DNA of 64,000 nucleotides, taken from an uncultured bacterium (GTDB taxonomy: Bacteria; Patescibacteriota; Minisyncoccia; Phycocordibacterales; CAIZLB01). The stretch is from NCBI GenBank assembly GCA_903864515.1, contig CAIPFZ010000018.1, positions 17,290-81,289 on the forward strand. Reading direction: 5' to 3'. The first letter of the stretch is position 1. Each line of letters starts with the position of its first letter. The notes beneath the pieces were generated by a model. The model made no database searches. It worked only from the letters and a program-made list of their open reading frames with translations, and was not told the origin of the DNA. Shown one piece after another: positions 1 to 25,833 of this stretch. A program made the position numbers and the translations under genes.

Positions 1-572
1 TACCAGGTTCAACGGCGGGATATTCTGGAGAAACATCTCAAGGTTATGGGGAATTCCAAGTTGGATCAAATTCCATATACATTCCAATGCCAAACGGTCA
101 CTCAACAATGTATGGATATGAATTTAAGACAGAATTCAATGTTGCCAGAAAGATATGGGACGCCAATAGCTACCGAGGAATTGGAAGAAACGCCGCTTTT
201 CCATTAATTCCAGGTGTATCTGTTGGTATATGTTCAAAGATAATCACTCAACTTAGAGGAATGGGTTATACAAATGGAGGAATTCCAGCTGTTGTACACT
301 TCGCTGGAGGACCAGATGTGCTAGTTAGAATTGATGACTCAGGAGATGACAGAAACATTTGCCCTAGAAATATTATTGATTTCTATATACCAAACTACAG
401 ATTTGCTACCGATTCATACAAATGGTTAGATGGTAGACCTCTTACGGGTATAGACGTGGCTCCAAACGCATCTCAACTAACAGGAACATCAATTAATAGT
501 ATTACTGGAATAAACTGGGGATATAAGTCACTATATGAGTATGACGCTGCAAACGGTGGTACTGTTGATTAA
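1..572 (+). CDS. hypothetical protein, 5'-truncated (frame open to window start)
   Basis: ORF 87..572 has no in-frame stop back to position 3, so the protein probably starts upstream of the window. No recognisable motifs. Sits immediately upstream of the T4SS-like cluster. Confidence 0.4.
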   Translation, partial: PGSTAGYSGETSQGYGEFQVGSNSIYIPMPNGHSTMYGYEFKTEFNVARKIWDANSYRGIGRNAAFPLIPGVSVGICSKIITQLRGMGYTNGGIPAVVHFAGGPDVLVRIDDSGDDRNICPRNIIDFYIPNYRFATDSYKWLDGRPLTGIDVAPNASQLTGTSINSITGINWGYKSLYEYDAANGGTVD

Positions 573-18937: not shown

Positions 18938-19237
18938 TTAAAACAAATCCTCATCAACCGCCTCCTCATCTTCTTCATCTTCGTCAACTGCTGGAGCAAT
19001 GAACTCACCATCTTCATTTAACTCACCAAATGAACCAAAACCAAAAGGATCCTCACCCTCTTTCTCTGGGTCTATGATACCGTCTTCATCTGATAGTTCC
19101 TCTACTTCATCAAGCGGTACATCCAGTGGATCAACGTCTCCATCTCCAATGTCCTTATCATCTAATTCAGCATCCTCTATTGAATCATCACTAGCATCAT
19201 CGGTTGTTGTATCGTCCAAATCTAATTCGTCTGGCAT
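18938..19237 (-). CDS. highly acidic (D/E-rich) small protein
   Basis: 99 aa, about half D/E. Same orientation as flanking ruvC and PBP genes, with a terminator-like hairpin downstream (about 18886-18910). The overlapping S-rich ORF on + is the complement-strand artefact. Confidence 0.35.
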   Translation of the reverse strand: MPDELDLDDTTTDDASDDSIEDAELDDKDIGDGDVDPLDVPLDEVEELSDEDGIIDPEKEGEDPFGFGSFGELNEDGEFIAPAVDEDEEDEEAVDEDLF

Positions 19238-19844: not shown

Positions 19845-20924
19845 TTATGCAAATTTAATTTGTTTATCTTCCGGATAGTCAATTCCTAAGTGAGCATAGC
19901 CTTGTGGCGTTACCATTCTTCCCCTCGGTGTTCTTTCTATGAAACCAAGTTGAATTAAATATGGTTCACTAAATTCTTCAATTGTAGCTTCATCTTCTGA
20001 GAGAGAGGCGGAAATTGTTCCAAGTCCAACTGGCCCTCCGTCATACTTTTCTATAATTGTTGAAAGTATGGATCTGTCCATTGCTGTTAAACCCCTTCTG
20101 TCTATGGAAAGAAGAGATAGGGCTTCTTCCACAACCTCCTTATTCAATTGTTTTTTTAATACTTGAGAATAATCTCTACATCTCTTAAGTAGGTAGTTGG
20201 CAGTACGGGGAGTTGAACGGCTTCTTTTTGCAATCTCATCCACAGCTTCTTTGTTTATATCTAGATTTAAGATAGTAGCTGATCTTAAAACTATTTTCGA
20301 TATTTCCTCCTCCGTATAGAATTCTAGACGAAACACACCACCTGAAAATCTAGATCTAAGAGGGGATGAGACCATGGCTACTCTTGTTGTTGCTGAAATT
20401 AAGGTGAAAGGAGGTAGGTCTAATTGAATAGTTCTGGCTGAAGGGCCTTTTCCTATGATGATATCTATTTGGCCCGATTCCATAGCGGGGTACAGCACCT
20501 CCTCTACAGTTTTGTTTAGACGGTGGATTTCATCAATAAACAGTATGTCTCCAGGGGAAAGGTTGGTTAAAACTGAGGCAAGGTCTCCTACGCGCTCTAT
20601 AACGGGACCTGATGTGATTTTAATCTGAGAACCAGTCTCCTTTGCTATAAGGTGGGCGAGGGTTGTCTTTCCAAGGCCTGGTGGGCCATAAAACAATAAG
20701 TGCTCAGGTGGATGATTCCTACCCTTTGCTGCAGTAAGTAGTATTTTAAGATTGTTTTTAATCTGTTCTTGACCTATATATTCATCAAAATTGTTAGGCC
20801 TTAGCTCTTGATCCAGGACTTTATCCCCGGTTTTTTCCAAAACCTCGTCAGTTACAGGGTTATTTAAGGAGATATCTCCTGTGTTTATATTAAAATCTTG
20901 TGTCATTTTGTTATTTTTACACAT
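19845..20924 (-). CDS. ruvB: Holliday junction branch-migration ATPase RuvB
   Basis: Walker A GPPGLGKTTLA, RuvB AAA+ core and C-terminal winged helix. Start may be MTQDF (20906). Confidence 0.9.
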   Translation of the reverse strand: MCKNNKMTQDFNINTGDISLNNPVTDEVLEKTGDKVLDQELRPNNFDEYIGQEQIKNNLKILLTAAKGRNHPPEHLLFYGPPGLGKTTLAHLIAKETGSQIKITSGPVIERVGDLASVLTNLSPGDILFIDEIHRLNKTVEEVLYPAMESGQIDIIIGKGPSARTIQLDLPPFTLISATTRVAMVSSPLRSRFSGGVFRLEFYTEEEISKIVLRSATILNLDINKEAVDEIAKRSRSTPRTANYLLKRCRDYSQVLKKQLNKEVVEEALSLLSIDRRGLTAMDRSILSTIIEKYDGGPVGLGTISASLSEDEATIEEFSEPYLIQLGFIERTPRGRMVTPQGYAHLGIDYPEDKQIKFA

Positions 20925-20953
20925 TTTAACTCTTAATCAGTATAATAACCGCT

Positions 20954-21045
20954 TGACATAAAAAAATAAGTATGCTACGATACTTGTGAGGGTGAAACAA
21001 GCTTGTCAGATGATATTGACATGCTAAAATAGGTTTTTGTAATAG
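20954..21045 (+). promoter_or_regulatory. two sigma70-like promoters upstream of the ncRNA candidate
   Basis: TTGACA (20954-20959) + 17 nt + TACGAT. TTGACA (21016-21021) + 17 nt + GTAATA. Both point toward 21091. Confidence 0.35.
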
Positions 21046-21090
21046 AAGTACAAAAAGGGATTTATCTTTGTGTTATTCTTTCGAATAAAA

Positions 21091-21261
21091 CAGCTCCTTA
21101 AATCTCTAAGCGATACAACCTTTGCGGGTCTATCGGTTTTTCTTAAAGGACGTTCTGGTGCGGGCTTTATGCCACGTTCCTGGTGCTATCCTTAAAGAAC
21201 TATCGGGCTTTAGGTCTTAGGACTTAAAGCATCGCTTAGAGATTTAAAGTGCTGTTTTTTT
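21091..21261 (+). ncRNA. structured ncRNA candidate with 6S RNA (SsrS)-like architecture
   Basis: A ~23-bp closing stem (CAGCUCCUUAAAUCUCUAAGCGAU ... AUCGCUUAGAGAUUUAAAGUGCUG) encloses ~120 nt with internal helices (UCUUAAAGGA/UCCUUAAAGA) and a central asymmetric region. It ends in a T7 run and has no ORF. It lies between ruvB and pilB. Confidence 0.4.
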
Positions 21262-21447
21262 ATTATCAATTTTTACTTAAATAAATTGATAAGATAACAA
21301 TACCTGCGAGGTCATTCTAAGTCAACGGAGATTTGCACAGTTTTTTGTTTTAAGATTAAATATAAAAAATGTCAAACTTTGTTGTTTTTTTGTTTATATT
21401 TTTATCTATTTGATAAATTATTTTACAATAGATATTTTGTATAAAAT

Positions 21448-23163
21448 TTATACAAGATTAGTCTCTTCCAAAACATCATCCTTTTTAAGGTCTATCACTC
21501 TCTCTAATTCATCAAATGATGTTATTCCTTGTAAAACCTTTACTACACCATCTTGTCTCATATCCAAAAAACCCTGCTTCTTGGCTACAGATTTAATTTC
21601 TCTTTCACTTGGATTTTCTCTGACTATTTTTTCAATTGACGCATCCGTTAGTATTAATTCGTGAATTCCTATTCTGTCAAAGTATCCTGTGTTGTTACAA
21701 GACTCACAACCTACCGGCATACAGATTTCAGTTGGCTTTTGAATAAACTCTTTTCCTTCCTCCATATCTTTGATTGAATCCAAAACATCATTAACCAAAT
21801 CAATTCTCTCCGTTGGTATTGGAATTCTTTTTTTACACTTTTCACACAGAACTCTAACTAGTCTTTGGGCTATAGCCGCATGAATTGCAGAGGTTAGTGT
21901 TTTTGGGTCTGCACCTAAGTCAATTAGTCTAGTAAATGTTCCAGCTGCGTTGTTGGTGTGAAGAGTTGAAAAAACGAGGTGACCAGTTAATGCGGCATTT
22001 ATTGCAGTTATTGCAGTTTCAGCGTCTCTAATTTCTCCAACCATTATAATGTCAGGGTCTTGTCTCATTGCGGATTTAAGGCCTGCTTCAAAAGTATATC
22101 CTTTAGATTCTTCAACTTGAGTTTGTACAATTCCTGGAAGGTGATATTCAACAGGGTCTTCAATTGTAATTATTTTATATTCTGGACTAGAAACTTCTCT
22201 TAAAAAGGCGTAAAGGGTTGTTGTTTTTCCAGATCCTGTTGGTCCGGTTGTTAAAATAAGGCCATTTGGTCTAGCTATTTCCTTCCTTATTGCTTCAAGG
22301 AAGCGTTTTGACATACCAAGCTTATCCATTGTAACCATTATGGACTCTGGGTTAAGAATACGCATAACAACAGACTCTCCATATGATCCTGGAATTGTTG
22401 ATGTTCTTATTTCAATATCTGTGTTCTTTACTTTTACTGTAAATCTACCATCTTGAGCGTTTGATTTAATGTTTAACTTAAGTCCAGATAATAATTTGAT
22501 ACGGGAAAGTGTTAATTCATAAGTCTCTTTATCAAATTCAGAGACGGTTGTTAAGACACCATCAATTCTGTATCGCAGTCTTGCTTTTAATTCACCAACT
22601 TCAATGTGAACGTCAGAAGATTTTGTAGAGAGTGCCCCCGCCATAACAATTGAAAGCATTTTTGATACTCGGTGGGTTTTCTTCATTTCCAAAGCTTCTT
22701 TTATCCATAGAGCAATATCCTCAAGGTTTTTTGTTCTTTGAACAAGGTCCTCAATCTCTTCGTTTGAAATATCCAACGAACCCGCCTCTGTTTCAGAAGC
22801 AAAGGAAATATCCTTATATCTCTCCCAAGCTTTTTCTAGGCTGTGAATTGATGCAATAAAAAGAGTGGGCCTGTATCCATTTCTCTCTAGGGTGTCTAAA
22901 ACATCCTTAGTTTCAGGGCTTTCTGGTGAATGAACTGCAATGGATATCTTTGTTCCAACTATATCAAATATTGCAACCTTGCTTTCTTTGGCTGTTTTCT
23001 CTTCTATAAGTTTAAGTCCATCTGAATTAATGGATACTGTAGTTAGGTCAATGTAAGATATATTGTACTTTTCCGCTAGAATTTGCATTGAAGCCTCTTC
23101 TTCATCAAGAAGAAGTTTTTTCATTCTTGCGTTTTGTTTGTCTTCGTCAAAGTGGATGGTCAT
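21448..23163 (-). CDS. pilB: type IV pilus assembly / type II secretion ATPase (PilB/GspE family)
   Basis: Walker A GPTGSGKTTTLYAF, Asp/His boxes, tetracysteine motif (CEKCKK...CESCNNTGY), N-terminal GSPII_E_N-like domain. Confidence 0.85.
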   Translation of the reverse strand: MTIHFDEDKQNARMKKLLLDEEEASMQILAEKYNISYIDLTTVSINSDGLKLIEEKTAKESKVAIFDIVGTKISIAVHSPESPETKDVLDTLERNGYRPTLFIASIHSLEKAWERYKDISFASETEAGSLDISNEEIEDLVQRTKNLEDIALWIKEALEMKKTHRVSKMLSIVMAGALSTKSSDVHIEVGELKARLRYRIDGVLTTVSEFDKETYELTLSRIKLLSGLKLNIKSNAQDGRFTVKVKNTDIEIRTSTIPGSYGESVVMRILNPESIMVTMDKLGMSKRFLEAIRKEIARPNGLILTTGPTGSGKTTTLYAFLREVSSPEYKIITIEDPVEYHLPGIVQTQVEESKGYTFEAGLKSAMRQDPDIIMVGEIRDAETAITAINAALTGHLVFSTLHTNNAAGTFTRLIDLGADPKTLTSAIHAAIAQRLVRVLCEKCKKRIPIPTERIDLVNDVLDSIKDMEEGKEFIQKPTEICMPVGCESCNNTGYFDRIGIHELILTDASIEKIVRENPSEREIKSVAKKQGFLDMRQDGVVKVLQGITSFDELERVIDLKKDDVLEETNLV

Positions 23164-23268: not shown

Positions 23269-25833
23269 ATGAACGAAAATCCTCCACAACCAACATCATC
23301 AGAAAGTCAAACAGGTGACAACATAAAACGCAGGGGAGTTTTAAGTGAGGTGTTAGAGAAGGTGAATGACAAGGATTCTAATAATTACGATTCTGTTTCA
23401 GCTTCAGGTGTTGGGGGTGAAGAAGAAGATTATATAAAGACTGAACACACCTATGATCAACATGGTGAGGTTGGTTTAAAAAAAGGAAGTATATCAAAAA
23501 CAGGAAATACAGACCCCGGTTTTGGATTGGTCCCTGGTGAATATTTATCAAAGCAAAATTCCTCTCTCAGTCTTGAAGGAAGTCATGATTTTTCTGACCC
23601 AAATGATTCTATGCAGGATGTTGACAGTTGGACTAGAAGCTCAAGGGCTTCTGATAGATATCAAGGACAGAAGGATGGTCTATCAAACTTGAGGCATGAA
23701 ATGAATCCAGAAGAAGATGAGCCTGAGGATATATATATGGATCCAAAAAATGTTTATGATCTAAAAGGAAGGAGAGTTGGAGGGAAGTTTAATACAGCTC
23801 CGCTTGATAATGAAAGTGAAGGTGAAGGATTGTTGTCAAAGGATCATGAGGGTGATGGCGTAGAACCAGGAAGTGTCAGTGTAAAGACTGAACAAAAAAT
23901 TGATGAAACACAAGAAACTTTGGCAGATACCCCACTTCCAGTTGAGGAAAAGGAGCCTGCAAAACCTAAAAAGACAAAATCACCAGAACCAGTAATTCCT
24001 CCAGAGGAACCCCCACTTCCACCAATGCCACCTTCAACACCAGAACCAAGGGTATTTCCAGAGACGCCAGAGTCTTCAGTAGCACCAGAACCACCAAGAC
24101 CACCAGAACCTCCTGTACCACCAATGCCGCCTTCATTTCCAGAGCGGGGTGATTTAACTCCACCACCACCATTCCCACAAGGAGGGTCTACCCCTCCACC
24201 TCTTCCAGAGGTTGCTCCAATGCCCGAAAGAACTCCTATGATTCCTCCATCTCTACCAAGAAATCCTGGAGCTACACCACCTCCACTTCCAAGACCTGAA
24301 GTGTCTATGCCTGAAAGAATTCCCATGAATCCTCCAGTTATTCCTGGTCCTGAAAATCCTATTCCAAATTCTAACGTACCAGAAAATGATAATTCTTTAC
24401 TAGGTAAAATCAACAGGGAAAACAGACTTACAATAGAGGCTGGTAATTCCATGGATCTAGGAAGTGAGATTGGTTGGCTCAGAAGTGCTTTTAATAAGTT
24501 GAGTATAAAAATGGGTTGGACTAAGGATATCGTTAATTATGTAAAATTAAATACAATAGACAAGGCCAGTATGGTCTTTGATACTTACGGAAATGACAGT
24601 CTGATTATAAGAAAAAAGAGAGAAATTGCTCGTCTTGATGCTGTAATACAAAGGGAAACTGATAACCCTACGGGTGAAAGAATGGCAAGAGAGAATGCTA
24701 ACAAAATAGAAGAGTCTATTAGAGAGGCTGAGGCTCGCGGGGATCAAAATATGGTAAGAGCTCTAATACTGGCAAAAAATGATGTTGTTGAAAACGGGGT
24801 AAACAGAAGAGGTCATCTCCAAGCAGAAAGAAACGCTTTGAATGAACAACTTGCAAGATATAATGAAAGAAAGATTTCAATAGTTGATAACTTTATTGCA
24901 AGTACTGAAATACAGACAGAAAGAATTAGAACAGCAGACAGATATCATGAAAATATTGCCAACTTAAGAACTATAAACACGGAGACAAATAGAATGTTAA
25001 GTGTCATAGCTGAAACAGATAGTCAAATAATAAGTTTGAAAAAGGCATTAGCTTCAACAAGAGATAGGGTAGATAAAGCTGAAATTAATGATGCTATCAG
25101 AGCATATGAATCACTCGCAAAACAAAGTAAGTTTAAGCTTAGTCAGTATGAATCCATTGGACATAGACTCGGTAGCTTTATAGAACTTACAGACAAGAGA
25201 ACAAAAAGATTCGATGATGTAAGAGACAGGTATGTAGGAGAAAGGAATATTTCACAAACTAATATTAATAATGGTGGTGTAACAAGAGCGTTCGTGCCAG
25301 CAAGTCCAGCGGGGCCAGCTAGACCTGCACCTACACCTGCGCCAGTCTCTCCTGCTACAAGAACGGGCCCAGCTGCACCTAGACCAACTCCTCCAGCGCC
25401 TGCGTCTCCAACACCAAGGTCTACCCTCGAGCCAACACCTACACCTTCAGCACCAGAATCAACAACCCCAGAACCTGAGCCGACACCCGATGTTGTAGAA
25501 AACCCAGAGTTGAAAAAAAGACGAACAGATAAAATCAAGGTTATAAATGATGCAGCAGAGAGGTTCCGTACGGCTTTTAGGAGTGAAAATAAGTCTGATG
25601 CAGCTGATCTTTCAACAATTCAAATGGCTAAAAATTTAGTTCCCGCATTGCGTGGATTCTTGAAGGACGGAGACTTTACTCAAGATGAAATTGAATTGTT
25701 TAAAAAAGCTGGAGAAAATATTGTTAATTTTATAGCTCAGACTGAAAAAGACGGCAATATTATTACAAACGACAATAGACAGTTTATGAAAATGGGAGGC
25801 AAGGTTTTTAAACAAATAAAAGAAATACAATAA
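23269..25833 (+). CDS. large proline-rich repeat / coiled-coil protein
   Basis: 854 aa. Acidic N-terminal region. Degenerate proline-rich repeats (TPPPLPxxxxMPERxPMxPP) also visible as ~84-bp DNA repeats around 24017-24340. Central coiled-coil-like region. Second PAPTP-rich stretch. Divergent from pilB. Confidence 0.5.
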   Translation: MNENPPQPTSSESQTGDNIKRRGVLSEVLEKVNDKDSNNYDSVSASGVGGEEEDYIKTEHTYDQHGEVGLKKGSISKTGNTDPGFGLVPGEYLSKQNSSLSLEGSHDFSDPNDSMQDVDSWTRSSRASDRYQGQKDGLSNLRHEMNPEEDEPEDIYMDPKNVYDLKGRRVGGKFNTAPLDNESEGEGLLSKDHEGDGVEPGSVSVKTEQKIDETQETLADTPLPVEEKEPAKPKKTKSPEPVIPPEEPPLPPMPPSTPEPRVFPETPESSVAPEPPRPPEPPVPPMPPSFPERGDLTPPPPFPQGGSTPPPLPEVAPMPERTPMIPPSLPRNPGATPPPLPRPEVSMPERIPMNPPVIPGPENPIPNSNVPENDNSLLGKINRENRLTIEAGNSMDLGSEIGWLRSAFNKLSIKMGWTKDIVNYVKLNTIDKASMVFDTYGNDSLIIRKKREIARLDAVIQRETDNPTGERMARENANKIEESIREAEARGDQNMVRALILAKNDVVENGVNRRGHLQAERNALNEQLARYNERKISIVDNFIASTEIQTERIRTADRYHENIANLRTINTETNRMLSVIAETDSQIISLKKALASTRDRVDKAEINDAIRAYESLAKQSKFKLSQYESIGHRLGSFIELTDKRTKRFDDVRDRYVGERNISQTNINNGGVTRAFVPASPAGPARPAPTPAPVSPATRTGPAAPRPTPPAPASPTPRSTLEPTPTPSAPESTTPEPEPTPDVVENPELKKRRTDKIKVINDAAERFRTAFRSENKSDAADLSTIQMAKNLVPALRGFLKDGDFTQDEIELFKKAGENIVNFIAQTEKDGNIITNDNRQFMKMGGKVFKQIKEIQ

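Follow-up and report, generated by a model that had tools for sequence, protein, structure and literature searches.

A conserved structured RNA gene adjoining ruvB in Parcubacteria, with an architectural resemblance to 6S RNA

Here, we describe the gene, strand, structure, promoter, and synteny of a structured RNA that is encoded between ruvB and pilB in an uncultured member of the Parcubacteria group. The window, i.e., the entire stretch of 64,000 nucleotides that was analyzed, harbors the RNA on the plus strand at positions 21085-21262, which almost certainly represent a genuine RNA gene. The RNA belongs to a family that is not yet catalogued and is distributed over several candidate phyla of the Parcubacteria group. 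The breadth of this distribution, the best promoter of the 64-kb window, and the presence of invariant modules indicate that it is very probably an abundant housekeeping RNA. Taken together, the features of the locus may be explained by a new, stable, and highly expressed protein-binding sRNA whose leading mechanism would be that of a 6S-like RNA polymerase decoy, an account that we put forward as a whole only tentatively.

There is abundant evidence for a structured RNA at this locus. The original prediction, which was made from the sequence of the window, postulated an unannotated non-coding RNA of about 170 nt with its own transcription between ruvB and pilB, and is borne out by fold stability (z = -9), covariation, and a promoter. 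The minimum free energy of the plus strand at 21085-21262 is -76.7 kcal/mol, compared with -40.6 ± 4.0 kcal/mol for 200 shuffled sequences, none of which folds as well (z = -9.0). The covariation check on orthologous regions suggested along with the prediction revealed compensatory changes, i.e., changes on both sides, at 42 of 52 pairs among 59 homologs. In the same alignment, 93.9% of the cells pair, compared with 80% in shuffled and 39-52% in slid controls, and none of 500 shuffles reaches any of these measures. Conservation and covariation over more than 150 loci place the element far beyond chance. The matches to the covariance model of the family (R1) have a length of 143-192 nt, with a median of 177 nt.

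The strand is equally clear. G·U pairs (600) far outnumber A·C pairs (98), which argues that the RNA is made from the strand opposite to ruvB, and R1 scores 172.8 bits on the plus strand of the window but 59.9 bits on the minus strand. This asymmetry and the model scores rule out a structure on the ruvB strand, such as an element in its 5' untranslated region.

Table 1. Features of the RNA locus, given as positions in the 64-kb window
Feature	Position	Strand	Details
Conserved structured RNA	21085..21262	+	Full match to covariance model R1
ruvB	19845..20924	-	Pfam RuvB_N, AAA_lid_4, RuvB_C; divergent from the RNA, 5' end interlocked with the RNA promoter
pilB-type type IV pilus/secretion ATPase	21448..23163	-	Pfam T2SSE, MshEN; convergent with the RNA
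Vestige of the ancestral ruvB start codon	20957..20959	-	Inside the -35 box; TTGACAT = ATGTCAA on the opposite strand
Main RNA promoter	20953..20981	+	TTGACA (20953-20958), 17-nt spacer, extended -10 element TGC-TACGAT (20973-20981)
Inferred transcription start	near 20988	+	From promoter position
Second, tandem promoter-like site	21003..21030	+	TTGTCA-16-TGCTAAAAT; 10/12 matches in consensus scan, with TG
Inferred 5' leader, ~100 nt	20988..21086	+	Hairpin 21027-21063 (inverted repeat I3), then T-rich stretch
P1, 5' strand (closing helix)	21087..21114	+	Inner 15 nt AAAUCUCUAAGCGAU (21100-21114), family consensus AAAUCUCUAAGCAAU
P2, small variable optional hairpin	21118..21129	+	On the 5' junction strand
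P3, long irregular hairpin	21133..21206	+	Invariant motifs AAGGACGUUCUGGU (21146-21159) and CUGGUGCUAUCCU (21180-21192)
P4, optional hairpin	21207..21230	+	On the 3' junction strand; conserved base CUUU/AAAG; helix 4
P1, 3' strand (closing helix)	21231..21258	+	Inner part AUCGCUUAGAGAUUU, family consensus AUUGCUUAGAGAUUU, invariant
T7 run	21255..21261	+	Directly after and partly within the closing helix; intrinsic-terminator-like 3' end in the subclade
Predicted start of product RNA			AUUGCUUAGAG...; inner 3' strand of P1

The two ends of the RNA are joined by a closing helix (P1), whose inverted-repeat arms (21084-21114 and 21231-21261) comprise 31 nt each, are 90% complementary, and lie 116 nt apart, in agreement with the predicted pairing of the 5' segment with a distant reverse complement. 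Among the 59 homologs, the 24 pairs of P1 are 97% paired and show both-side changes at 20 pairs; the outer part of the helix covaries, its inner pairs are nearly invariant, and the inner 15 bp are sequence-invariant throughout the family. The closing stem had been described as imperfect but is in fact a near-perfect helix of 25-30 bp that is not broken by bulges and contains no more than one 2x2 mismatch.

The long hairpin P3 contains three conserved internal loops and a variable apical hairpin. The predicted pairing of UCUUAAAGGA with UCCUUAAAGA is real and constitutes its lower part. By contrast, GUUCUGGUG and GUUCCUGGUG, which had been interpreted as imperfect repeats that could form an open bubble, turned out to be the two strands of a conserved helix. 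The invariant motifs of P3 pair with each other, forming AGGA/UCCU, an internal loop of C versus UA, and a helix with a terminal CUGG/CUGG whose strands are joined via tandem U·G/G·U pairs (U76·G106 and G77·U105 in 53/59 sequences each; G78-C104 in 59/59). Helices 2 and 3, both part of P3, are 92-94% paired and show both-side changes at 14 of 18 pairs, and the module of AGGAC/UAUCCU and CUGG/CUGG is located at a fixed distance of 12-13 nt from the junction.

What comes closest to a bubble is the junction between P1 and P3, but an open junction is not supported: in most members, both of its strands form covarying hairpins. At the position of P2, 87/100 loci have a hairpin of 4 bp or more (median z of -2.45), although its sequence is unrelated between loci, and the hairpin is absent in 11/100; the 5' junction strand measures 0-3 nt in loci L037 and L091, and only a few short variants, among them L066 and L070, keep it open (9-10 nt). 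P4, which 95/100 loci have and 5 lack, is 89% paired and shows both-side changes at 7 of 9 pairs; its gap to P1 is 0-1 nt, so that coaxial stacking is likely. The usual fold is a four-way junction, with a conserved multi-helix interior of about 115 nt.

Every invariant nucleotide is part of a helix or an internal loop, namely in the 15 innermost base pairs of P1, at the base of P4, and in the module of P3. The hairpin loops, which are variable tetraloops, and the linkers all vary, and the complementarity among the loops of P2, P4, and P3 does not exceed that of permuted controls, providing no indication of kissing interactions. This distribution of conserved positions suggests an interaction with protein rather than pairing with mRNA, and the RNA probably works by binding a protein. 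A trans-acting sRNA that pairs with mRNAs, with one strand of the P1 core serving as a seed after opening or processing, is very unlikely. It would fit the independent transcription of the gene from a promoter of its own, and a constraint on a single 15-nt strand would also explain the invariance of both strands of P1. However, there is no conserved single-stranded region in the RNA, the putative seed is hidden within a highly stable helix, and matches to the core elsewhere in the window occur at chance level (4 found, 3.8 expected). Likewise, trans targets of the conserved motifs within the 64-kb window are not above chance.

The RNA adjoins ruvB in all related Parcubacteria genomes examined. 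It is present in all ruvB-anchored loci with room for it, and 108 loci were found by the RNA pattern alone. Among the loci found by pattern, a divergent ruvB is located within 700 nt of the RNA in each of the 100 that have room for the gene, and pilB is situated downstream and convergent in 96 of 98 loci with room, in 90 of these at a distance of at most 700 nt. Twelve pattern-only matches from metagenomes that lack ruvB were rejected as unrelated; some are chance matches, and some represent another family of perfect palindromes. The neighboring genes are ruvB, ruvC, and pilB; there is no candidate for a partner protein among them and no gene for a reverse transcriptase in the annotated neighborhood. 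Both the count of the 21-mer arm, which occurs only at its two sites in the 64-kb window (chance expectation 0), and the search with R1 identify the RNA as single-copy in the window. It is absent from viral contigs, and no tandem repeats were found.

It is extremely improbable that the RNA represents a cis-acting or mobile element of a known kind, such as a riboswitch or leader, a self-cleaving ribozyme, a retron RNA, a MITE/REP palindrome, or a terminator. The long terminal inverted repeats, the usual four-way junction, and the T-run that follows the element in the window would fit such an origin, but there is neither an Rfam match to a ribozyme or riboswitch nor a reverse transcriptase nearby. 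An element that is single-copy and always occupies the same locus is not mobile; the single copy in the 64-kb window, the adjacent ruvB in 100/100 loci, and the absence from viral contigs exclude a MITE/REP element. A riboswitch or other cis-acting leader is excluded because pilB is convergent in 96/98 loci, so that no gene on the same strand follows the RNA, and because the asymmetry of G·U and A·C pairs eliminates the ruvB strand. A plain intrinsic terminator is incompatible with the conserved multi-helix interior and with a run of at least five T in only 18/100 loci.

The RNA is apparently transcribed away from ruvB, from a near-perfect promoter of the sigma-70 type with an extended -10 element. 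A scan of both strands of the 64-kb window finds no perfect TTGACA-16..18-TGnTAnnnT site besides this promoter (0.3 expected). A promoter of the form TTGACA-N16-18-TGnTAnnnT occurs in 93/98 homologous loci, in all cases with TGn; the reverse strand has one in 3/98 loci, and shuffled sequences have one in about 8/98. Of the two TTGACA-17 promoters that had been predicted, the upstream one (TTGACA-17-TACGAT, with TG) is conserved, whereas the second is better read as TTGTCA with a 16-nt spacer. Depending on the locus, 3 to 123 nt separate the -10 box from the conserved RNA, and the 5' leader is probably removed by processing.

The prediction of an intrinsic terminator holds for the window, where the T7 run is present, but not for the family: at least five T follow P1 in 18/100 loci (compared with a background of 4.6%), and the feature is restricted to a subclade. 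The primary transcript would thus carry a leader of variable length and usually lack a terminator, and the mature RNA may be either cut out or protected by P1, whose 25 or more base pairs join both ends. Together with the A-run at 21087-21090, the T7 run makes the element resemble a terminator also on the minus strand.

The promoter is interlocked with the 5' end of ruvB. In 72/91 loci, the ATG that overlaps the -35 box opens the RuvB frame (M-S-S/R/T/I ... LDQTLRP..YIGQ); in the window, the same ATG is vestigial and followed by a stop after 8 codons (MSSGYYTD), and the present start of ruvB is at 20924. The reversed TGC-TA region reads TAGCAT and lies 12 nt upstream of the ruvB ATG in 43/91 loci. 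The -35 box and the ruvB start codon share bases, which represents an unusually tight coupling of a non-coding gene and a repair gene. This overlap would account for the absolute synteny with ruvB and suggests that the two promoters cannot be occupied simultaneously. An anchored alignment of the region downstream of the RNA's -10 box revealed no conserved -35 box for a ruvB promoter. The core of P1 was considered as a ruvB promoter (with TTGCTT as the -35 box) but rejected, because inspection by eye found no -10 box at the right spacing.

The tight arrangement of the locus raises the possibility that the function resides in DNA or in transcription itself, with a strong promoter across the start of ruvB and the convergence on pilB controlling both genes by occlusion, interference, or antisense effects, and with a fold that serves mostly stability or termination. 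Such an explanation is unlikely. It is in line with the ruvB ATG in the -35 box, the TAGCAT upstream of ruvB, and the divergent arrangement that is kept in 100/100 loci, and also with a weaker promoter-like site on the ruvB strand past the 3' end of the RNA in close relatives (21325 to 21297 in the window) and the terminator-like appearance of the element in both directions in the subclade of the window. However, interference or termination could do without the invariant internal-loop module of P3, its fixed spacing, and the compensatory changes at 42 pairs. Moreover, the anchored alignment shows no conserved -35 box that could serve ruvB past the -10 box of the RNA, and the promoter-like sites on the minus strand are weak (5/6, without TG) and occur in 22/100 loci, mostly close relatives.

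The RNA matches none of the families of Rfam 15, in agreement with its classification as unannotated; the Rfam search proposed along with the original prediction yielded no family, 6S or other. At gathering score, there was no match in the window and 20 homologous loci. At E<=10, three slices were searched, i.e., 561 nt of the window and the divergent members L070 (181 nt) and L063 (206 nt), and matches were listed down to 8-14 bits; they comprised only chance matches, such as those to some miRNA models and to rliE, the latter with 21 bits against a gathering score of 90. Membership in the 6S family, as originally suspected, is not supported, because none of the 6S or 6S-like covariance models scores on these slices even at E<=10. 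There were also no Rfam matches to SRP RNA, RNase P RNA, tmRNA, or tRNA, and ARAGORN detected no tRNA or tmRNA in 20800-21500. The RNA resembles orphan motifs of candidate phyla, for example the LOOT motif of uncultivated Patescibacteria, which likewise is probably trans-acting and has a long, hairpin-type architecture with conserved internal loops. The RNA differs from LOOT in its synteny with ruvB and in the absence of an Rfam match at any threshold, which would cover LOOT if it is included in release 15. Searches of the literature on non-coding RNAs of the candidate phyla radiation and Patescibacteria, including a paper reporting 224 motifs, yielded no description of the RNA and no mention of 6S RNA together with the candidate phyla radiation. 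In the single paper found in which "6S RNA" occurs alongside "Patescibacteria", it denotes SRP RNA. Since Rfam-based annotation misses about half of the 6S genes in lactic acid bacteria (PMC8414754), the failure of a model to match is weak negative evidence.

The likeness to 6S RNA survives solely as an architectural resemblance. Like 6S RNA, the RNA is 143-192 nt long, its ends are paired in a closing stem, and an apical stem is located across the junction (P1 and P3, both covarying). Both have a strong promoter of their own (here possibly in tandem), and the RNA is predicted to be abundant, like 6S RNA. The apical arm of both contains internal loops, with the conserved module of the RNA located about two helical turns from the junction, and a hairpin on the 3' junction strand is also present in 6S RNA of the Firmicutes (6S-1 type) (PMC8414754, PMC8876501). 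A further shared trait is sequence conservation in the junction-proximal part of the closing stem's 5' strand, from which 6S RNA templates its product RNA; in lactic acid bacteria, this concerns the first 11 positions of the product RNA (PMC8414754). Even the synteny with a recombination-related AAA+ ATPase gene has a parallel in lactic acid bacteria, where 6S RNA is associated with rarA (PMC8414754) instead of ruvB. Individual sequences were also inspected by eye for an alternative hairpin of the 6S type, in which the 3' strand of P1, once freed, would pair with the 3' junction strand. The window, L030, and L066/L070 could plausibly form it, but it is not plausible for L006, L076, and L072 and is thus not conserved.

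The RNA differs from 6S RNA in several respects. In 6S RNA, the central bubble is mostly unstructured, and its open 5' strand contains the start site of the product RNA (PMC8876501, PMC8414754), whereas the 5' side of the central region in the RNA usually forms a stable, covarying hairpin or is missing. The helical arms of 6S RNA are interrupted by small bulges and internal loops (PMC8876501), whereas P1 is near-perfect and 97% paired, with 15 invariant inner base pairs; such a perfect 25-30-bp helix is more reminiscent of an RNase III substrate than of an arm of 6S RNA. Known product RNAs of 6S have GG at positions 4/5 or 5/6 (PMC8414754), whereas the product RNA predicted from the invariant candidate template (the inner 5' strand of P1) lacks GG. 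A precedent is provided by Ms1 of Actinobacteria, which is lineage-specific, is missed by the 6S model, occupies a 6S-like niche, and was found via synteny. Ms1 is described as structurally related to 6S RNA and as binding the core of RNA polymerase and not the holoenzyme (PMC9130861); Rfam showed no sequence similarity between Ms1 and the RNA.

If the RNA binds a protein, the single most likely client would be the RNA polymerase holoenzyme, for which the RNA may act as a 6S-like decoy. P3 would correspond to the upstream duplex and carry the conserved module at the spacing of a -35 box, the melted region would be represented by the junction, and the conserved inner part of P1 would serve as the downstream duplex and as template for a short product RNA (AUUGCUUAGAGAUUU). 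A 6S-like mode of action fits the size and shape of the RNA, the hairpin on the 3' junction strand, the conserved candidate template, and the very strong promoter. It is possible that the RNA works like 6S RNA, although this is doubtful.

The RNA may also be part of a ribonucleoprotein that is unrelated to RNA polymerase, a possible but likewise uncertain explanation. In this case, the invariant P1/P4 helix and the P3 module would be read by a protein with specificity for RNA duplexes or junctions, processing of the RNase III type within P1 would define the ends, and the client might be tied to the neighboring recombination genes. The occurrence of invariant sequence in a perfect duplex and in internal loops, the near-perfect P1 of 25-30 bp, unlike the arms of 6S RNA, and the lack of a match to any 6S model are consistent with such a particle, as are the usual four-way junction, which allows P1 to stack on P4, and the absolute linkage to ruvB (100/100); processing is suggested by the variable length of the leader together with the lack of a terminator. 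However, ruvB, ruvC, and pilB do not include a candidate partner gene, and the linkage could be explained by the overlap of the promoter with the start of ruvB. Moreover, the junction varies, with 11% of the members lacking P2 and 5% lacking P4, which makes the recognition of the four-way junction as such unlikely. It is very unlikely that the RNA is the subunit or regulator of a ribonucleoprotein specific for Parcubacteria, with an invariant duplex and a mostly four-way fold resembling a Holliday junction that would be read by a duplex or junction binder. This binder could conceivably be the RuvAB/RuvC machinery, whose gene start lies within the promoter of the RNA, and the abundance of the RNA would then be coupled to recombination or repair.

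A strong promoter, a variable leader, and a long, near-perfect flanking helix around a structured core are also characteristic of the processing stalks of rRNA operons and of other stable RNAs that RNase III excises. The RNA shares the promoter, the leader, and the long helix around the core with these stalks but differs in the invariant sequence of the inner half of its helix, which suggests that this half is part of the functional RNA and is not discarded.

Parcubacteria and other bacteria of the candidate phyla radiation have tiny genomes, and we know of almost no regulatory RNAs that have been characterized in these lineages. Covariance model R1 could serve to annotate the RNA gene in metagenome-assembled genomes. 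If the RNA is the 6S equivalent of these bacteria, promoter mimicry would extend to an RNA that is built quite differently, in which the closing helix is perfect and a junction replaces the bubble; if it is not, it would mark an unknown ribonucleoprotein in a major part of uncultivated bacterial diversity.

The structured RNA proposed for the strip between ruvB and pilB (ruvB-side RNA; 21085-21262, plus strand) is confirmed and much strengthened by its folding energy, its conservation, and the covariation of its helices. The arms of the inverted repeat lie where the original prediction had placed them (21084-21114 and 21231-21261; 31 nt, 90% complementary, 116 nt apart), with a T7 run at 21255-21261. 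The plus strand of 21085-21262 has a minimum free energy of -76.7 kcal/mol, compared with -40.6 ± 4.0 kcal/mol in shuffled sequences (z = -9.0); the good fold of the reverse strand (-66 kcal/mol) is expected because the element is a set of helices. No further copies of the arm sequence were found elsewhere within the 64-kb window, and no tandem repeats, tRNAs, or tmRNAs were found at the locus. Two ORFs without Pfam match adjoin the flanking genes, one of 854 aa (23269-25833, plus strand) next to pilB and one of 99 aa (18938-19237, minus strand) next to ruvC.

From 59 homologs aligned with plain MAFFT, RNAalifold yielded a consensus of 50 pairs, of which 42 show compensatory changes. With this consensus plus two pairs as the tested structure (52 pairs), 93.9% of the cells were paired, as opposed to 80.2% in column shuffles and 39-52% with slid partners; 42 of the 52 pairs changed on both sides, and none of 500 shuffles matched any of the five covariation measures. 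The excess of G·U over A·C pairs (600 vs. 98 in 100 loci) and the scores of the covariance model R1, which were higher in sense than in antisense orientation throughout (e.g., 172.8 vs. 59.9 bits), indicate that the RNA is encoded on the strand opposite ruvB. Because the hairpins vary in length, a conserved reading frame is ruled out, in agreement with the predicted absence of coding potential.

Features of the ruvB-side RNA locus (window positions)
Feature	Position	Strand	Description
ruvB	19845-20924	-	flanking gene, followed by ruvC
RNA promoter	20953-20981	+	TTGACA-type with extended -10
Second promoter-like site	21003-21030	+	TTGTCA-16-TGCTAAAAT
P1	21087-21114 / 21231-21258	+	closing helix, 25-30 bp, nearly uninterrupted
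P2	21118-21129	+	small hairpin, 5' junction strand
P3	21133-21206	+	long irregular hairpin
P4	21207-21230	+	hairpin, 3' junction strand; conserved CUUU/AAAG base adjoins P1
pilB-type ATPase	21448-23163	-	other flanking gene

RuvB relatives place the window within the Parcubacteria group of Patescibacteria; the labelled ones include Taylor-, Yonath-, Vogel-, Nomura-, Campbell-, and Zambryskii-bacteria, which are separate candidate phyla in the NCBI ranking. In searches with nhmmer and blastn, most of 80 loci had the element upstream of ruvB and on the strand opposite to it, at identities from 99% down to less than 68%, and R1 matched every locus for which upstream sequence was at hand. A scan of metagenome contigs with the two conserved arm sequences alone as query returned at least 120 loci; among the matches listed, the RNA was present in 108 of 120, ruvB was divergent and at most 700 nt away in all 100 RNA-bearing loci with room, and pilB was convergent and downstream of the RNA in 96 of 98. 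No copy was found in viral contigs. In two loci (L036, L038), pilB has been relocated to the opposite side of ruvB and the RNA-ruvB pair is unbroken, so that the RNA is more tightly linked to ruvB than to pilB. The remaining 12 pattern matches were rejected as unrelated sequences. Near-perfect palindromes of ~170 nt that belong to an unrelated family (UGAAAGCCUUCUAUCUCUAAGCCCGGG...CCCGGGCUUAGAGAUAGAAGGCUUUCA; -83 to -143 kcal/mol) are present in four metagenome contigs, one labelled human gut (L083 2018-2191, L112 1085-1256, L118 3889-4060, L148 3691-3862); they match the search pattern by chance, through its 10-nt arm.

The common fold is a four-way junction. The outer part of P1 covaries freely; its inner 15 bp (AAAUCUCUAAGCAAU / AUUGCUUAGAGAUUU) are nearly invariant. 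In P3, a lower part of constant length and variable sequence leads into an invariant module and then into a variable apical hairpin; the module comprises AGGA/UCCU, a C facing UA, and a 7-bp helix whose end is CUGG/CUGG with tandem U·G/G·U. The imperfect repeats GUUCUGGUG/GUUCCUGGUG, originally read as a possible 6S-like bubble, are really the opposing strands of the CUGG helix. P2 forms a hairpin of at least 4 bp in 87 of 100 loci, with unrelated sequences, and is missing in 11; P4 was found in 95 of 100. Some members are three-way junctions (L037, L091) or rods with an internal loop of ~10 x 8 nt (L066, L070). The hairpin loops are variable tetraloops, and no loop-loop complementarity was found among them. 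Invariant nucleotides occupy duplex or internal-loop contexts at constant spacing, and all loops and linkers are variable, a sequence pattern from which we take the RNA to be recognised by a protein rather than to pair with mRNAs. A base-pairing small RNA is an improbable alternative, given this variability of loops and linkers and given that sites complementary to the conserved motifs are not in excess within the window.

An RNA-strand promoter (TTGACA, at least five and mostly six of six positions; 16-18 nt; TAnnnT) was found upstream in 93 of 98 loci, each time accompanied by an extended -10 TG, compared with 3 of 98 on the other strand and ~8 of 98 in shuffles; the anchored alignment gives the consensus cTTGACAtaaaaa...TaTGcTAnnnT. 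Within the 64-kb window, no other site on either strand reaches the quality of this promoter (0.3 expected). It corresponds to one of the two promoters originally claimed; the other fits TTGTCA-16-TGCTAAAAT better than TTGACA-17. The claimed intrinsic terminator is real for the subclade of the window but is no feature of the family, as at least five T follow P1 in just 18 of 100 loci (background, 4.6%). Since the spacing between the -10 box and the conserved RNA is variable as well (3-123 nt), processing probably generates the ends, and P1 is its likely signal. In a long-leader subclade (window, 20988-21086; L039, L125, L013, L016, L007), a leader hairpin followed by a T-rich motif (e.g., GCGATTATCTCTTT; GGGATTTATCTTTG in the window) resembles a terminator or attenuator between promoter and RNA body. 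An A-run precedes P1 (21084-21094) and a T-run follows it (21251-21264), so that in the window's subclade only, the element also resembles a minus-strand intrinsic terminator for pilB.

The overlap of the RNA promoter with the ruvB start codon is an unusual feature. At 72 of 91 loci, the sequence context of the promoter, CTTGACAT, corresponds to ATGTCAAG on the complementary strand, and the ATG contained in it is the ruvB start codon (e.g., L010, L073, L155); the -35 hexamer and the ruvB start share bases (20953-20962 in the window), and the RuvB N-termini begin with M-S-S/R/T/I and continue into LDQTLRP..YIGQ. In the window, the old ATG (complement of 20957-20959) opens a frame that stops after 8 codons; ruvB now starts at 20924. 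Because an ATG within the -35 box leaves no room for a ruvB promoter between the ruvB start and the RNA promoter, the former must overlap the RNA promoter or sit further upstream on its own strand, within the RNA gene or past it. Read in reverse, the TGC-TA region gives TAGCAT 12 nt upstream of the ruvB ATG in 43 of 91 loci; as a ruvB -10 box this would mean a very short leader, and no matching conserved -35 box was seen in the anchored alignment. Past the RNA 3' end, weaker promoter-like sites are found mainly in close relatives. One on the ruvB strand, TTGACT-17-TATTGT (21297-21325, minus), lies just past the RNA 3' end, recurs at that position in the closest relatives, and, if active, would cause antisense transcription over the whole RNA gene toward ruvB. 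The overlap suggests that the RNA and ruvB promoters cannot be occupied simultaneously, and it alone could explain the absolute RNA-ruvB synteny. That the locus is a transcription-interference module for ruvB seems unlikely to us.

Neither the window nor 20 further loci matched any Rfam 15 family at gathering score, in line with the predicted lack of annotation, and short slices of three divergent members gave only chance matches at E ≤ 10 (rliE with 21 bits, where the gathering score is 90, and some miRNA models). Literature searches found no description of a 6S RNA or of the ruvB-side RNA in the candidate phyla radiation. The RNA is a new family that is widespread in Parcubacteria and was found neither in Rfam 15 nor in the literature searched. 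Mobile repeat, leader, retron, and plain terminator were each rejected in membership tests, and a known cis or mobile element is improbable. Membership in the 6S family, originally raised as one possibility, was not borne out at either threshold; because even in lactic acid bacteria about half of the 6S genes escape Rfam-based annotation (PMC8414754), the lack of a model match is not conclusive by itself.

6S RNA is a ~200-nt rod with an unstructured central bubble, on whose open 5' strand the product RNA (the short transcript that RNA polymerase makes on 6S RNA as template) starts; its arms are interrupted by bulges, the apical one contains a "-35-like" region, the bubble has a 3'-side hairpin in Firmicutes, and the first 11 nt of the product RNAs are conserved, with GG at 4/5 or 5/6 (PMC8876501, PMC8414754). 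Features of the ruvB-side RNA that fit are its size and two-arm shape, the conserved module that its apical arm carries 18-24 nt away from the junction, the hairpin formed by the 3' junction strand, a strong promoter with variable precursor ends, and 15 invariant nucleotides exactly at the would-be template position. By contrast, it lacks covariance-model similarity, its 5' junction strand is either missing or, in most members, folded into a stable hairpin, its closing helix is nearly uninterrupted instead of bulged, and the predicted product AUUGCUUAGAGAUUU lacks GG. The 6S interpretation is only partly supported overall, and the RNA may work like 6S; a 6S-like decoy of RNA polymerase is a tentative reading, and so is a part of an unrelated ribonucleoprotein, possibly processed by RNase III. 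The signature of recognition by protein, the lack of excess targets, and the exceptional promoter point to an abundant housekeeping RNA, and the family bears on both RNA biology and the biology of the candidate phyla radiation.
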